61,581 nt of DNA, from positions 1 to 61,581 of the forward strand of contig CAYURH010000004.1 in NCBI GenBank assembly GCA_964447105.1, in the 5' to 3' direction. Source of the stretch: an uncultured Candidatus Saccharibacteria bacterium. GTDB lineage: Bacteria > Patescibacteriota > Saccharimonadia > Saccharimonadales > EFPC-124. Below the pieces are notes generated by a model. The model was not told where the DNA came from. It saw nothing but the letters and a program-made list of their open reading frames with translations, and made no database searches. Position 1 is the first letter of the stretch. Every line of letters starts with the position of its first letter. The position numbers and the translations under genes are program-made. Below are positions 22,989 through 30,563 of this stretch, piece by piece.

Positions 22989-24061
<1,073 letters not shown>

Positions 24062-24065
<4 letters not shown>

Positions 24066-24868
24066 CTATCGACCAATATATAGCCGAGTCTACCAGGCAG
24101 CTTACTGCCGCCGGTATCGCATCGGCGCGGCTGGATGTGTTGGTGCTGCTAAGCGATGCGCTCCAACACGACAAATCATGGGTTTTGGCACATGGCGACG
24201 ACACCCTTGCGCCAGGGCCAATAGCTCAACTCCAGACGCAGATTCGTCAGCGCTGCAGGCGGGTGCCGCTGGCCTACATTCGTGGCCATCAAGAGTTTTA
24301 TGGTCGCGAATTCACCGTCAATCCAGATGTGTTAATCCCCAGGCCGGAAACCGAAACGCTCATTGATCTAGCCAAAAATTATATCCGCAGCGGCCACATA
24401 CTCGACGTAGGCACAGGCAGTGGCGCAATCGCCGTGACGCTGGCACTGGAACTTCCCAATGCAACAATCACTGCGTGCGATATTAGCCCGCTAGCACTCA
24501 AAGTTGCGCAACAAAACGCCCGTACACTACAAGCAAATGTGCGTTTTTTTGAATCCGACCTCTTGAGCAATGCTAGCGACAGGTACCATGCGATTATCGC
24601 CAATTTACCATATGTTAGTCGCGGCTGGGAGGTATCTCCAGAAACAGCCGCCGAACCAGCGATGGCACTATACGCCAATGATAACGGTCTAGAATTGATC
24701 AACAAACTGCTCGCCCAAGCGCCTCATCATTTACGTACAGGCGGTCATCTGTTGCTTGAAGCTGACCCGCGCCAACACGCGACTATCACACAATCCGCCC
24801 ACAGGTTTACCCGCGTCAGCACACACGGTTTCTGCATAGTCCTACGATTATCCGATGTTGACAAGTAG
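24062..24868 (+). CDS. prmC: Release factor glutamine methyltransferase
   Basis: [21 protein letters not shown]; follows prfA. Confidence 0.95.
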
Positions 24869-25016
24869 ATATATTTACAATACAATAGCTTTTATGCTTA
24901 ACTGGCTACCCCTACAAACTGCTTTGCATCATGCCCGCTTTCTACCTCGGTGAAAGTGGTTTGCTGTGATTATCTAACAACGACATCAATCCCCTCTCAA
25001 CCGAGAGGGGCTTTTT
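24858..25016 (+). promoter_or_regulatory. Promoter, leader peptide and intrinsic terminator (attenuator)
   Basis: TTGACA-17-TACAAT (24858-24886); uORF 24894-24953; cccctctc-aacc-gagagggg-ctttttt (24991-25017). Confidence 0.7.
24894..24953 (+). CDS. Putative leaderless leader peptide (19 aa)
   Basis: MLNWLPLQTALHHARFLPR*, ATG 7 nt after the -10 box. Confidence 0.6.
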   Translation: MLNWLPLQTALHHARFLPR

Positions 25017-25062
25017 TACTCAAAAAGTCACGCACATTCCCAAACCAAGGAGCAGCGGCCAC

Positions 25063-26019
25063 ATGACAGCGAGATTTAGAACATTCCCGCTCGACAGATC
25101 ACAAGTAGCGGCCTCAATCTGCAACGAATATGTACAAACCGGCGTCACAGGCTGGGAATATGTACCTCTTCGACACAGGTTTGCCGCCGACGGCATAAGC
25201 CTTGACGGGCCTACAGTACGGCAATTGCGCCAGTTTACGAACGCCTACGCCACATTTATGGGCGCGCCGGACGACTACTACCGATTGGATCTGTATATCA
25301 CGCCAGATTCCCTGGCAGTACTCGAAGTCAACGCCGATTTTGTAGATGGCTGGGGCACGGCGCTCAATATCGCTCGTGCCGCAGGCATTGAGACTACGGT
25401 TGCAAGCAGGCACTTCCCGAGCTGTTTTGTGCTTGCGAACTATGCTTACCGGCCCGAACTAGAACTGTTGCTTGCCGAACTGGGCGGCACTCGCCACCAC
25501 ATCTGCGCTCAGCCCAAACCAACCTGCAGCGATCCGCTGTACTTGTACGGCCGCGCACTGCCGCCCCAACACGCTCACCGAAGCCGCTACGGTAGCAGCG
25601 CGTACGACGACAAACACAGGCTGGCTGAGTTCGCCACCAGTTGGTCGGGTGATCTAGTACGCATACCCCAGATCTACACATCCGCAAGCACCGCTTGGGG
25701 CGACATCCCCAACGACGCATTCCTGAAATTCGCGCAAAAATCTGGCCCCCAAAGTGAAGCCGCAAGATTTAGCGTGCGATACGGCAAGCCCTTGGGCAAG
25801 GCCAAATTTCTGCAAGCGTGTTGGCGAGACGGTAGCCTGATCGCCCAAGCAAACGTGGATGGGCTCGGCAGATATGGCCAGCCGGCCGTGGGCGTGCTCA
25901 ACCCCTGCGCGCAGCTGGTAGTGCTTGCGCATCGTGGCCATCTGGCGGGCTACGTGCAGTACGATGTACGGCGCATTATTACCGACGATTCGGTACATGC
26001 CCCCCTGTATTTTGCGTAA
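25063..26019 (+). CDS. Glutathionylspermidine-synthase-like ATP-grasp protein
   Basis: RLD...LEVNAD motif, AFLK, LIAQ, C-terminal IITDDSVHAPLYF resembling GspS/YgiC; SD aaggag; hairpin 26028-26054 after the stop. Confidence 0.65.
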   Translation: MTARFRTFPLDRSQVAASICNEYVQTGVTGWEYVPLRHRFAADGISLDGPTVRQLRQFTNAYATFMGAPDDYYRLDLYITPDSLAVLEVNADFVDGWGTALNIARAAGIETTVASRHFPSCFVLANYAYRPELELLLAELGGTRHHICAQPKPTCSDPLYLYGRALPPQHAHRSRYGSSAYDDKHRLAEFATSWSGDLVRIPQIYTSASTAWGDIPNDAFLKFAQKSGPQSEAARFSVRYGKPLGKAKFLQACWRDGSLIAQANVDGLGRYGQPAVGVLNPCAQLVVLAHRGHLAGYVQYDVRRIITDDSVHAPLYFA

Positions 26020-26081
26020 TAGCGCACCGGCGGGGTGGTCCAACCACCCCGCCGACAAATAAACCAAACTATAGGATTTTT

Positions 26082-26597
26082 ATGAAGACACTCATTTTTG
26101 ACATTGACGGCACGCTCACCGACATGAGCTCAATTGAACGGGCGGTATATCAAACAATCAACAAGCGCTACGCGGGTGCCGGTAGGCGTCGTGCCGATTA
26201 CCGTGACGCTTTTGTCCGGCTAGCTAATGCCAATGCGCTACCTATACCCAATGCGTATAAAACTGTACAGTTTATACGACAATACGCCAGCAACTATATT
26301 TTTGTCTACGCTACGGGCGCGCAAGACGTCGAAGTGGCATACGTATTACAATCGTTGGGCATACGACAGTTTTTTGATGAGCAATACTCGACCACCATCA
26401 CTAACTGTCGCTTTAGCAAAAAGACCGGCATCCCGTTGCGACGAATCGCCAAGCGTTATCCAGACTGCCTGCTCATAACCGACAGTTCGTCAGATGTAGC
26501 CGGTGCCCAAAAGGCCCATGTGCCCGCCGTACTACTGCAACCCAACGCTAAGCTAACTACCCGGGGCATAGAAAAAGCGGCGCGTCTATACCGTTAG
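26082..26597 (+). CDS. HAD-family hydrolase
   Basis: IFDIDGTLTD motif I, YATG motif II, K, TDSSSDVAGA motif IV-like. Confidence 0.88.
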   Translation: MKTLIFDIDGTLTDMSSIERAVYQTINKRYAGAGRRRADYRDAFVRLANANALPIPNAYKTVQFIRQYASNYIFVYATGAQDVEVAYVLQSLGIRQFFDEQYSTTITNCRFSKKTGIPLRRIAKRYPDCLLITDSSSDVAGAQKAHVPAVLLQPNAKLTTRGIEKAARLYR

Positions 26598-26611
26598 GTA
26601 AGACGGCCGCG

Positions 26612-26824
26612 TATAGATGTGCTGCGCGTGCCTATGGGCAACACGGACACACCTGCGGTATGTGGGAGCTGGGGTGGCAGGCGGGTCTGTAGCCCGCCAC
26701 CCCAGCTCGGGCCAGCAGTGCAGTTCTGGGAGTGCCCGGTGGGTATTCCCTGCTCCCAGCGCGCGCCTCGGCCTCGCGGCCGGTGGAGCGCATTGCACGA
26801 TCCGGCCCCACAACAAGGTCTATA
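26612..26824 (-). ncRNA. Candidate multi-branched structured RNA of unknown class
   Basis: 5' and 3' ends pair; four inner arms; GCGA tetraloop; G-U pairs favour the minus strand; extended -10 TGcTATGCT just upstream. Confidence 0.6.
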
Positions 26825-26864
26825 TGTAGCATAGCAGATCCGCAGGCGGCCTTTCAAACGAACA

Positions 26865-28049
26865 CTAGTTGTTGTAGGTGTCGAGCATGACGTCGACTTT
26901 CATTTCTTTGTCGTCGCGAATAAATGTAATAGTGATTTTGTTGCCCGGATCAAACTGCGCCAAACGGCCGGCCAGTCCGTGGCCAATATCGACTGGTGCG
27001 TCATTTATTTTGGTAATCACATCACCTTCGCGAATACCCGCCTTGGCCGCCGGGCTACCCGGTTCGACGCTGGGCTCACCATTGCCGCCCAGTACAAGCG
27101 CGCCCGACGTTTCTTTAACATGCAGATCATATGACACATCTGGGTCCAGGCTGACATAGTGCACACCCAAATATGGTTTGACAATCTTGCCAGTCTTCAG
27201 CATAGAATCAATCACTTTTTTGATATTGCTAATAGGAATCGCAAAGCCGATGGCCTGGCCCTCTTCGGATACCGCCGTATTGATCCCAATCACTTGGCCG
27301 GCCAGATTTACCAATGGCCCACCGGAATTGCCTGGATTGATAGCCGCGTCTGTTTGCAGCAGATCTTCCAATTGTTCCGCGCTACTGCCACCTTCATCTT
27401 GCGCCTGAATCGGTCGGCCCAGGCCAGATATTATGCCGGCGCTCACACTGTTGCGGAATATGCCGAGCGCGTTGCCAATAGCTACCACCTGCTGGCCAGG
27501 TTGCACTTGCGTGGAATCACCGATTTGCGCTGGCGTAAGGTTGGTCACGCCATCGATCTTCAAAAAAGCAATATCGTTCATGGGGTCACGGCCCACGATA
27601 CGTACAGTGTCGTACTGCTTACCGTCAGCCATAACTACCGTTACACTTTTGGTCCCTTCCGGCACCACATGTTTGTTGGTCAATATATAACCATCTTTGG
27701 AAATCACGATACCACTGCCTGCCCCCTGGATTTGCTGTGTGCCCCTGAAACCGTAACTCACGGTACCGAGAGTGGTGATAGCCACCGTGCTGGGGTTCAC
27801 TTTTTTAAACACATCCGCCACTATTTCACCCTGTTGCAGCACGATCTTTTCGCGGTTCTGCGTAATGGTCTGGCCAACATCCAAATGCACTATGCCCGTG
27901 GCCAATAGCGCCCACACGCCACCCGCACTGGCAAATACACATATCACGGCCGTGACGATGGCAAATATAATTCTATTCGACGTATTGCTGGCTGGCCTTT
28001 TAACCACCGGACTGACTGGCGTTGGTTCAGTTCGTTCGTTCATACCCAC
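26865..28049 (-). CDS. htrA: HtrA/DegP-family serine protease with PDZ domain
   Basis: TM anchor, LTNKHVV, DIAFLK, TDAAINPGNSGGPL, PDZ. Confidence 0.93.
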   Translation of the reverse strand: MGMNERTEPTPVSPVVKRPASNTSNRIIFAIVTAVICVFASAGGVWALLATGIVHLDVGQTITQNREKIVLQQGEIVADVFKKVNPSTVAITTLGTVSYGFRGTQQIQGAGSGIVISKDGYILTNKHVVPEGTKSVTVVMADGKQYDTVRIVGRDPMNDIAFLKIDGVTNLTPAQIGDSTQVQPGQQVVAIGNALGIFRNSVSAGIISGLGRPIQAQDEGGSSAEQLEDLLQTDAAINPGNSGGPLVNLAGQVIGINTAVSEEGQAIGFAIPISNIKKVIDSMLKTGKIVKPYLGVHYVSLDPDVSYDLHVKETSGALVLGGNGEPSVEPGSPAAKAGIREGDVITKINDAPVDIGHGLAGRLAQFDPGNKITITFIRDDKEMKVDVMLDTYNN

Positions 28050-28064
28050 TCCTTGATCGCCAAT

Positions 28065-28829
28065 TTAGATTGTTACATCCCAGGGCGAAAAGAGGAGAAT
28101 CACCCCCAGTAAAATTGCCCCAAACAGTACTGTGCCGCGCAATGTTCCACGGTCTAGCTTGTCTGTTTTGGCCATGTGGTACATGCGGCCAGCGCAAAAA
28201 CCAATTACCAGCATGATAAGTGCAATCTGCGGAATAAGAATCGGCAAACCTAAATTGTACGCCGTAGTCCAATGGATCAATAGCCACGCCAGTTCAGCCA
28301 GCAACATACCCCACATGGTAGCCCACAGTTCAACGTAACGCTCTTCGTAGTTGCTCACCACATGACGAGCACTCACGTAGCCTACAATGCCACTAGCCAA
28401 GATCACGAAGGGCTCGTTAAATACAGCCGACAGGCTAAACAACACTACCAGGCTCAAAAATTGCGCGATCCCAGCTTGCGCCATAATGCCATAATGCCCC
28501 GAACGCGGCTTGATGACCACTTGCCACACTCCGTACCCAAGCATGATCATAATCTGCACTATCAAATCGCCCGACGCCAAATACATAAGACCCACGACGC
28601 TCAGCCCCACCAACACGTCCACCAAATTGGCTTTTATATTAGTCCACCAAAACCGCGGACGCAGCGCAAAAATGCGCCATTTACTCAACAACACCAATGC
28701 AATAGCGAGGTATGGCGGATCAAACCCGCGCACCAATATCAACACCGCCACCGGTAGCAAGGCGTTGAACACGATGTAGAAAATTTCGCTCACGCGCGTA
28801 CGCGCGGCCCGTGATCTGAGTAGATCCAT
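28065..28829 (-). CDS. Conserved hypothetical multi-TM protein
   Basis: About 8 TM segments, LSKWRIFALRPRFWWTNIKAN motif; TATAAT just upstream. Confidence 0.85.
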   Translation of the reverse strand: MDLLRSRAARTRVSEIFYIVFNALLPVAVLILVRGFDPPYLAIALVLLSKWRIFALRPRFWWTNIKANLVDVLVGLSVVGLMYLASGDLIVQIMIMLGYGVWQVVIKPRSGHYGIMAQAGIAQFLSLVVLFSLSAVFNEPFVILASGIVGYVSARHVVSNYEERYVELWATMWGMLLAELAWLLIHWTTAYNLGLPILIPQIALIMLVIGFCAGRMYHMAKTDKLDRGTLRGTVLFGAILLGVILLFSPWDVTI

Positions 28830-28877
28830 CACAATACCCCAATTATATCCTATGTTACCGGTGAGCAACACTTTTTG

Positions 28878-30563
28878 TTAGTGTGACGATGTGTTGCTGG
28901 CTGGTGTCGTGCCTATGATGACGACAAAGTCTGAGTTGGAGCTGATGCCAGCTGGCAACGTGGTTTTGGCGGTCACGCCCAGCATGGATTGTAGCTTCTT
29001 CAATGTTTGTGGTTTTTTGCCGCCGCTGAGGTCGTAAAGTTGGATCGGAGCGGTATTGAGCGTGGTAGGTGCGTTGCTGATTTTGACCACTTTGAATCCG
29101 GCGTCTTCTAGACTGTCAGCCTGGGTCTGCGCTTTGCCCGCTTCGCCGCTGGCGTTAAGCACGTCGACAGGGGCTTTTTCGATGGCTACAAAATTACCCG
29201 TGGCATAGGCCTTCACCGTAGCCTGGATGTCTGTGTAAACCCCCACCCCAGCGACTGGTTTTACAATGCTCTGGCCGTTAATATTACCGGTGTTTACCAA
29301 AGGATGATCTGGGTCATTGAGCGGAAGTGACATAATGTCATTGCTGTTGACGTCTTGCCCTAATTTGACCAAAGTCTTAATCTCTTCTGCATCAAAATTA
29401 GTGCGCACATTGTTGCCCAGGGCGTCGAGCAAATTGTTCACGGCTACAGGGTTGGCCAACGTACCGGCGCTCACTGCTTTGTCTTTGAGCGCAATCAAGA
29501 TGGCGCGCTGATATTTCTCGCGGTCGAAATTGGCCTGCGGGAACCCGTAGGTGCGCCCTAGCGGGTCATCACCGCGAGCGCGGGCCAGGTATAATGCGTG
29601 TTTGCCATCGAGCTGCACAGGCCCGTTGGGATATTTAACGTTGTAGCATGTTTGCGAACCTTTGGGGCAATCCCAGTCGAAGTTACGGTCGAGCACACCA
29701 CGCGAATCTTTGCTGTCGATCACCACCGTGATACCTCCCACGGCATCCACTGCCTGACGCAGTGCGGTGTAATTCAGATGGGTGGCGTATTGCACGTCGA
29801 GGCCCAGCACTTGACCCACTTTTTTGCGTAGCGCTTCCTGAGCGGTCTCTTCCCCTTGAGATTTTACGCAGCTATACAGTGCATTTATCCTACCCTGCAG
29901 CCCAGCGGGGCACGTGCGACTATAGTCTACCCACAGATCACGAGGGATACTCACCAGGAATGCATCTTTTTTAGTCTGGTTCACACTGACCACCATAATG
30001 GAATCGGTCAAATCGCCACCGGGATGACCTGGATCGTCTTCGGAAGTTCCAAATAACAGGATGTTGGTGCGGCCATTGGCGTCTTGCTGCAACGGCTTGG
30101 CTTGGTTAAAGATGGCGCTTACTACGTTGCCTTTAAAGATTTTGCTGCCGGTGCTCAAAAATTTGAACACAAAATAACCGCCCAAACTCAGCCCAGCCAA
30201 GACAACCAGCACAATGGCAATGATAATGGCACGTTTCACCCATGGGCGCTTGCCGCTAATTTTGTCTTTTTTGTTACGCCGGTCACGCCGCCGGTCACCA
30301 CGAGACTTCGGTGGTTCGTCGTCGAGACTCAGGTCGATCCCTAAATCTTTGTGCGACACGCTATGTCCTGGGTTTACCACCTGCGGCCTGGTTGTCCCAG
30401 TCAGCTGGCTGGCGTTGGCATGTTTGTGCGGGTCGGCTGGGTCCACCAGATACTTAGGCGGCAAGGATTCTTTGGATACATCCAAGCTAGGCTTGTCGCC
30501 ACCAGGGGAAGCAACACGTCGCGGAATAACAAAACCATCGGTGTTTGATCGTCTATGTTTCAT
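28878..30563 (-). CDS. LCP (LytR-CpsA-Psr) protein with LytR_C domain
   Basis: NILLFG, TDSIMV, VSIPRDLWV, LARAR, VDVLNASG. Confidence 0.93.
   Translation of the reverse strand: MKHRRSNTDGFVIPRRVASPGGDKPSLDVSKESLPPKYLVDPADPHKHANASQLTGTTRPQVVNPGHSVSHKDLGIDLSLDDEPPKSRGDRRRDRRNKKDKISGKRPWVKRAIIIAIVLVVLAGLSLGGYFVFKFLSTGSKIFKGNVVSAIFNQAKPLQQDANGRTNILLFGTSEDDPGHPGGDLTDSIMVVSVNQTKKDAFLVSIPRDLWVDYSRTCPAGLQGRINALYSCVKSQGEETAQEALRKKVGQVLGLDVQYATHLNYTALRQAVDAVGGITVVIDSKDSRGVLDRNFDWDCPKGSQTCYNVKYPNGPVQLDGKHALYLARARGDDPLGRTYGFPQANFDREKYQRAILIALKDKAVSAGTLANPVAVNNLLDALGNNVRTNFDAEEIKTLVKLGQDVNSNDIMSLPLNDPDHPLVNTGNINGQSIVKPVAGVGVYTDIQATVKAYATGNFVAIEKAPVDVLNASGEAGKAQTQADSLEDAGFKVVKISNAPTTLNTAPIQLYDLSGGKKPQTLKKLQSMLGVTAKTTLPAGISSNSDFVVIIGTTPASNTSSH

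Follow-up and report, generated by a model that had tools for sequence, protein, structure and literature searches.

Type-I 3'-UTR-derived small RNAs (sRNAs), such as DapZ and MicL in enterobacteria, have their own promoter and a terminator in common with the parent mRNA, and envelope-stress regulons elsewhere are known to host sRNAs derived from 3' UTRs. The locus described here has a similar layout. On the minus strand of the window (the whole stretch of 61,581 nucleotides that was analysed), a promoter-like site lies at the end of an upstream gene, a strongly folding body follows in that gene's 3' UTR, and a single terminator would be common to this element and the mRNA. The parent gene, htrA, encodes an envelope-quality-control protease and is in this respect comparable to the hosts of envelope-stress sRNAs. 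The type-I sRNAs, however, are 80-150 nt in length, carry an exposed seed and are Hfq-dependent, whereas the element would give an RNA of about 250 nt that is almost fully paired, branched, 67% GC and without a homologue.

Other described elements resemble the locus in part. Like the Rfam families raiA, OLE, ROOL, GOLLD and HEARO, it is at least about 200 nt long, is built around multi-helix junctions, is intergenic and has no assigned biochemical role; those families are defined by covariation across many genomes, however, and none of them matches the element, which is without a second member. REP and BIME sequences are GC-rich palindromes found between convergent genes, where they can stabilise the upstream mRNA and buffer transcription. 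The element is likewise GC-rich and palindromic and lies between convergent genes at a gene 3' end, but REP sequences are units of ~35 nt present in tens to hundreds of copies, while the element is a single nested fold of 213 nt. Lysine and cobalamin riboswitches combine a promoter, a junctioned fold of ~200 nt closed by a P1-like stem, and a terminator within 2 nt, an arrangement that is also seen here. Unlike these riboswitches, the element matches no model, has no downstream gene on the same strand and has no credible antiterminator: only the antisense of a HAD hydrolase gene lies downstream, and the sole alternative pairing involves the 3' arm of the terminator.

The window is one contig (C4) of a 0.945-Mb genome in 43 contigs, with 52% GC and a rated completeness of 98.5%. 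The genomes of its relatives are all between 0.5 and 1.7 Mb in size, which indicates that the source organism is an ultra-small bacterium. The element is located in a 267-nt gap (26598-26864) between htrA, on the minus strand, and the convergent HAD hydrolase gene, on the plus strand (Table 1). The source DNA is present in soil metagenome runs; the five sequencing runs listed for the locus include no RNA run. Among four such runs that were compared (X1 to X4), only X1, the possible or probable source, covers the element, and X2 to X4 leave 26538-26960 uncovered. In an independent assembly of X1, a single contig of 6.9 kb spans HAD, element and htrA and shows 0 differences, so the locus is not a join artefact of the window. 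Between ORF318 and the HAD gene there is an 11-bp GC hairpin (CGGCGGGGTGG / CCACCCCGCCG) at 26028-26055; Logan contigs of runs X1 and X4 break at 26039-26087, coinciding with this hairpin, and contain a few mismatches towards their ends. We take this for an assembler break caused by the palindrome and not for a misjoin.

Table 1. Features of the htrA-HAD locus (positions in the window) and four further strongly folding intergenic loci of the same genome (contig and position).
Feature	Position	Strand	Remarks
Lineage-specific segment of ~2 kb (ORF318, HAD, element)	24869-26864		Between prmC and htrA
ORF318	25063-26019	+	No Pfam (E <= 1), NCBIfam or PADLOC family
HAD-IA hydrolase gene, convergent with htrA	26082-26597	+	Rare accessory gene
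Intrinsic-terminator-like hairpin (26610-26577) and UUUUU (26576-26572)	26572-26610	-	-22.7 kcal/mol
Predicted five-helix multibranch fold (closing stem and four arms)	26612-26824	-	77 base pairs
Closing stem, bulged	26824-26810 / 26625-26612	-	MFE
Arm 4, bulged hairpin with CAUA loop	26626-26644	-	MFE, pair probabilities
Arm 3, 7-bp hairpin with GCA loop	26647-26663	-	MFE, pair probabilities
Arm 2, 17-bp hairpin with 9-nt loop	26666-26708	-	Pair probability 1.00
Arm 1, three-way junction with GCGA-capped hairpin and CUGGGAG/CUCCCAG hairpin	26709-26808	-	MFE
Extended -10-like TGcTATGCT	26828-26836	-	Predicted transcription start near 26821
-35-like hexamer TTGAAA	26852-26857	-	8 nt past the htrA stop codon
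htrA-like serine protease gene (Trypsin_2 and PDZ)	26865-28049	-	Element is its 3' flank
Locus L040	C18:14713-14932		z -3.9
Locus L041	C6:12561-12780		z -1.9
Locus L043	C27:2296-2515		z -3.6
Locus L044	C20:18640-18859		z -4.7

The minimum free energy (MFE) structure of the minus strand agrees helix for helix with the multi-branched, GC-rich architecture of the original prediction. The 221 nt from 26828 to 26608 fold at -117.7 kcal/mol, with 52 G-C, 18 A-U and 7 G-U pairs (70 of the 77 Watson-Crick) and a mean pair probability of 0.88, so that in the model the fold ensemble is well defined. Within arm 1 the pair probabilities are 0.95, 0.98 and 0.74. The perfect stem expected in arm 2 is present, at a length of 17 bp instead of the 13 bp originally given. 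The fold is more stable than its composition would explain. A 236-nt segment of the minus strand folds at -121.9 kcal/mol, compared with -98.8 +/- 5.1 kcal/mol for dinucleotide shuffles (z -4.53), and z reaches -6.81 for 266 nt that include the terminator; 0 of 200 shuffles were as stable in either case. Against 100 mononucleotide shuffles the element has a z of -5.3, while the genome's own RNase P RNA and tmRNA have -3.4 and -3.8 (first 220 nt each). Of 212 intergenic gaps of at least 150 nt, delimited by a crude ORF caller, this one ranks first for GC (0.65) and second for low MFE per nt.

The G-U pairs had been thought to fix the strand, and this argument fails: the plus strand has a partly different fold of its own that rivals the minus strand (-119.1 kcal/mol for 221 nt and -122.4 for 236 nt), and only the structure mirrored onto the plus strand is worse, by 6.6 kcal/mol. 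A firmer guide to the strand than the G-U pairs is the U-tract terminator. In the predicted fold nearly all bases are paired and no long single-stranded seed is exposed.

Strong folding is also seen at other intergenic loci of this genome. The most stable intergenic stretch, L039 (C5:3909-4128), consists of two adjacent near-perfect long hairpins (stems of ~27 and 24 bp) between same-strand genes; it has a z of -11.5 against mononucleotide shuffles and, in Rfam, only a sub-threshold match to a plant miRNA hairpin. L040, L041, L043 and L044 have a GC content of 0.62-0.70 and no Rfam match at E <= 0.01, and are unrelated to the element. When 14 other strongly folding intergenic loci were searched with a covariance model built from the single sequence of the element and its MFE structure, none resembled it beyond a hairpin.

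A sigma-70-like site of the form TTGAAA-18-TGcTATGCT is present at 26857-26828 on the minus strand, as had been claimed. It matches the consensus at 9 of 12 positions, and its -10-like part ends 4 nt before the closing stem. One such site was found, where 0.4 +/- 0.5 would be expected from shuffles (per 800 nt). Comparable sites end 8 and 11 nt 5' of the RNase P RNA and tmRNA genes (2/2), which suggests that such promoters are used for RNA genes in this organism. At the other end, the terminator-like hairpin begins 2 nt past the fold and occurs on the minus strand only, with a z of -5.1 and 0 of 200 shuffles as good. It ranks 22nd among the 204 sites in the genome that combine a hairpin with T5; at -20 kcal/mol or below, such sites are about three-fold enriched (34 in the genome, 11.5 in shuffles). 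A consensus terminator scan does not include this hairpin in its list, which holds only two plus-strand sites inside htrA. The hairpin overlaps the end of the HAD gene, whose stop codon lies in the loop and whose last codons make up the 3' arm and the U-tract. On the minus strand the consensus scan gave no terminator-like site from the htrA stop codon as far as the element, which places the fold inside the htrA transcription unit. An independent sRNA gene is expected to have a promoter 5' and an intrinsic terminator 3' on one strand, and both are found here as consensus or energy matches only; judged by sequence, promoter, fold and terminator have the anatomy of a discrete RNA gene.

The reading that we prefer, with about even confidence, is that the element is a lineage-specific structured RNA of the minus strand, which forms the htrA 3' UTR and is probably also made as an RNA of its own. 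Its position is certainly that of an htrA 3' UTR. Transcription would proceed along the minus strand, on which the element follows the htrA stop codon and precedes the first intrinsic terminator, and the htrA transcript would then carry a structured 3' UTR of ~290 nt. The sigma-70-like promoter would in addition probably give a discrete RNA of ~250 nt, predicted to run from about 26821 to 26572, in the manner of a type-I 3'-UTR-derived sRNA. The earlier description of the element as a novel standalone structured RNA is partly supported: the element belongs to no recognised class, but it is at least as much the 3' UTR of htrA as a gene of its own. Since it is paired almost throughout and offers no long exposed seed, a structural action would be the likeliest. 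It may resist exonucleases at the 3' end and so stabilise the htrA message, while also buffering the zone in which convergent htrA and HAD transcription would collide, or it may alternatively be a protein-binding scaffold; regulation by base pairing appears less likely on the modelled structure. As a counter-point, stems this close to perfect would be expected of young or foreign DNA no less than of a selected RNA.

The element is a single-genome orphan in the collections searched. BLAST found it in none of 60 relatives. The covariance model gave no match in 18 same-family, 150 same-order and 150 same-phylum genomes, and its best score at the 18 syntenic htrA loci, searched with filters off, was 8.6 bits (E 1.3). 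The model was likewise without a match in 151 genomes of the high-GC phylum of an actinobacterial MAG, a thin, filter-limited sample (at most 15 candidates per genome) for which an empty answer is uninformative. No match was found in plasmids and phages by blastn, or in viral contigs with two exact patterns. The stem pattern of arm 2 had 4 matches in genome contigs, from Glutamicibacter, Myxococcales, Gemmataceae and Atopobium MAGs; these overlap only arm 2 (model positions 121-163, at most 23.8 bits) and were therefore rejected as homologues and regarded as unrelated hairpins. A metagenome scan seeded with HtrA gave only 5 loci, at 34-35% identity, which are too distant for use. With no homologue found, there is neither covariation nor a sign of purifying selection to cite.

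HtrA orthologues are present in all 18 same-family genomes, with 43-63% identity; one of these genomes is flagged as unpublished, and nothing stated here depends on it alone. In this genome prmC ends at 24868, while in the relatives it adjoins htrA or nearly so: prmC is found in the htrA flank at 15 of the 18 same-family loci, and ORF318 and the HAD gene at none. At 17 of these loci the htrA stop codon is directly adjoined by a long open frame, either the convergent prmC itself or a same-strand ORF of 151-193 aa followed by prmC; the 18th locus has a flank of only 57 nt. Whatever the element does is thus dispensable in the family. Homologues of the HAD hydrolase occur in 3 of 400 other genomes of the phylum. 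ORF318, which is single-copy in the genome, is an orphan accessory gene paired with this rare hydrolase. Upstream of htrA, a 268-aa ORF (28065-28871, minus strand) adjoins htrA at 16 of the 18 same-family loci, with 49-68% identity (33% at one locus) and no Pfam, NCBIfam or PADLOC family.

The GC content of the element, 0.667, compares with 0.51 for the HAD gene, 0.57 for ORF318 and 0.52 for htrA, and with an intergenic mean of 0.483 +/- 0.058 (n = 212). It is far above that of the native structured RNAs (RNase P RNA 0.53, tmRNA 0.47, 5S rRNA 0.52), which points to a foreign or recent origin. By composition the element is foreign, and it lies within or borders on a lineage-specific insertion. 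From its GC content and its place at the margin of this 2-kb insert, it would appear to have come in with a recent insertion or to have arisen at one.

The proposal that the element belongs to no recognised class was borne out by a search of Rfam 15 (4227 models), in which the element reached the gathering score of no family; the only matches in the window are 5S and 23S rRNA, at 61.2-61.6 kb. At E <= 10 there were 10 sub-threshold matches, all of them overlapping arm 2, to nine microRNA-precursor models and the Caulobacter sRNA CC3664. The best score, for mir-3151, was 26.6 bits against a gathering score of 83 (E 0.024), and CC3664 scored 17.8 bits against 60; these matches are hairpin-level noise. 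Among the housekeeping RNA genes whose presence elsewhere had been in question, rnpB and ssrA were located, as RNase P RNA at C13:21789-22140 (254.4 bits) and tmRNA at C13:24882-25282 (100.7 bits), and the element was rejected as a candidate for either, the genome's own copies both being on contig C13. It was also rejected as a relic of a tRNA or tmRNA, neither of which was found in 24000-29000. The other two genes, ffs and ssrS, were not found elsewhere. SRP RNA (RF00169 and RF01854) had no match in the element or in the whole genome, even at E <= 10, and 6S RNA (RF00013) had none in the element or the genome with a model that detects only 5 of 14 control genomes. The MFE structure is a five-way junction and contains no rod with a central bubble, in agreement with the earlier view that it is not a 6S-like rod.

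Both BLAST and the covariance model found the element to be single-copy, with only the self match in the genome. The region 24800-27000 contains 19 families of short two-copy direct repeats, none of which flanks it. Multiple copies with target-site duplications, which would have marked it as a MITE, were thus not seen, although the closing stem does form a terminal inverted repeat. No transposase, integrase or defence gene was found near it. None of the five ORFs over the element has a Pfam match at E <= 1, and two ORFs that span it have no homologue among predicted proteins. Nothing on this RNA was found in the literature searched, including PMC8321541, PMC10768705, PMC8155191 and PMC11606122.

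Because the genome had no SRP RNA match, the element was briefly a candidate for ffs; the protein components of the system are missing as well. For Ffh, PF02978 has no match in the genome and TIGR00959 reaches 13.6 bits, and the match to PF00448, at 21.4 bits, is at the level of the P-loop only. No reading frame in the genome combines a P-loop with the DTAGR motif, and tblastn with the Ffh and FtsY frames of two unrelated bacteria gave nothing below E 0.1. SecY is present, at 309 bits. With Ffh and FtsY missing no SRP RNA is expected, and the element is thus not a hidden SRP RNA. The relatives give a similar picture: RF00169 was found in 0 of 30, PF02978 in 0 of 300 genomes of the phylum, and an Ffh protein query matched one of 300 phylum genomes, partially and at a contig end. 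In 40 same-order genomes PF00448 gave short matches, mostly at P-loop level, of which the best alone scored 22.2 bits; three genomes just reach the 22.7-bit cut-off (22.7-23.1 bits) when neighbouring matches in the same frame are summed. Controls were positive in 14 of 14 model genomes. No statement of SRP loss in this group was found in the literature searched. That the SRP system (RNA, Ffh and FtsY) was not found may already be known or, outside this genome, may reflect a limit of the first-look filter of the search. Although only a by-product of the check for ffs, this absence could matter more than the element.

The main rival reading is that of a non-functional relic: a GC-rich scrap of palindromic DNA, gained laterally or by local duplication and left at the border of the ORF318-HAD insertion. 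Such a scrap would owe its structure to inverted duplications and would be transcribed passively, if at all. We consider this doubtful. It would account for the orphan status in every collection searched, for a GC content of 0.667 where intergenic DNA has 0.483 +/- 0.058 and native structured RNAs 0.47-0.53, and for the location at the boundary of a segment that is missing from all 18 syntenic family loci; near-perfect stems, with 70 of 77 pairs Watson-Crick, are like those of young palindromes, and the two strands fold equally well. A nested five-helix architecture with a z of -5 to -7 is, however, unlike a random foreign fragment, a promoter-like site and a terminator abut both ends on the same strand, and no source sequence was seen in the thinly sampled 151 high-GC-phylum genomes, plasmids or phages. 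It is also conceivable that the nested inverted repeats act as DNA, as a MITE, a transposon end, a recombination site or a single-strand origin. Such an element could explain the terminal inverted repeat TATAGA...TCTATA, the nested palindromes and the position at an insertion boundary, but with a single copy in the genome by BLAST and covariance model, no flanking direct repeat, no transposase, integrase, defence gene or tRNA nearby, and no match in plasmids, phages or viral contigs, it appears quite improbable. If the element is instead an RNA gene, it might be the founding and, so far, sole member of a new standalone class, a five-helix, GC-rich RNA of ~250 nt with its own promoter and terminator, of lateral or recent origin, that binds protein or senses a ligand and is not a base-pairing sRNA; we regard this as unlikely.

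Riboswitch-gated antisense RNAs are known in other bacteria, and the closing stem might decide whether the terminator forms, so that the element would be an attenuator or riboswitch-like leader gating antisense read-through into the convergent HAD-ORF318 pair. The succession of promoter, large junctioned fold and immediate terminator is the layout of a transcription-terminating riboswitch. Moreover, the heptamer UAUAGAC occurs at 26824-26818, on the 5' side of the closing stem, and again at 26590-26584, within the 3' arm of the terminator, and either copy could pair with UCUAUA(C) at 26617-26611. We give this little probability, as the alternative pairing uses the terminator arm that is transcribed last and sets 7 bp against -22.7 kcal/mol, which makes a poor antiterminator, as the riboswitch models of Rfam give no match at E <= 10, as only HAD antisense and no gene follows on the minus strand, and as no conservation marks out a ligand pocket. 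A highly divergent SRP or 6S RNA that escaped the Rfam models is barely plausible. Neither RNA was detected anywhere in the genome, which leaves a place for one, but the lack of Ffh and FtsY removes the expectation of an SRP RNA, the 30 relatives without SRP RNA do not carry the element either, the fold is a branched junction without the rod form and central bubble of 6S RNA, and a housekeeping RNA should be conserved in the family, where the element is found in 0 of 18 genomes. Next to no credence is given to a small protein gene overlapping the element: five frames are open for 66-87 codons, but that five of the six frames should be open is expected by chance at 67% GC, the translations are rich in Arg, Pro, Gly and Ala, and the searches of Pfam (five ORFs, E <= 1) and for homologues (two ORFs) were empty.

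The preferred reading thus remains that of a lineage-specific structured RNA associated with the htrA 3' end, and its present value lies in being a candidate to follow up by metatranscriptomics. Should it prove to be transcribed and functional, it would join the very few structured non-coding RNAs on record for ultra-small bacteria, whose reduced genomes make any 270 nt without coding capacity costly, and would provide a case of a large structured RNA that is not ancient but young or acquired horizontally.
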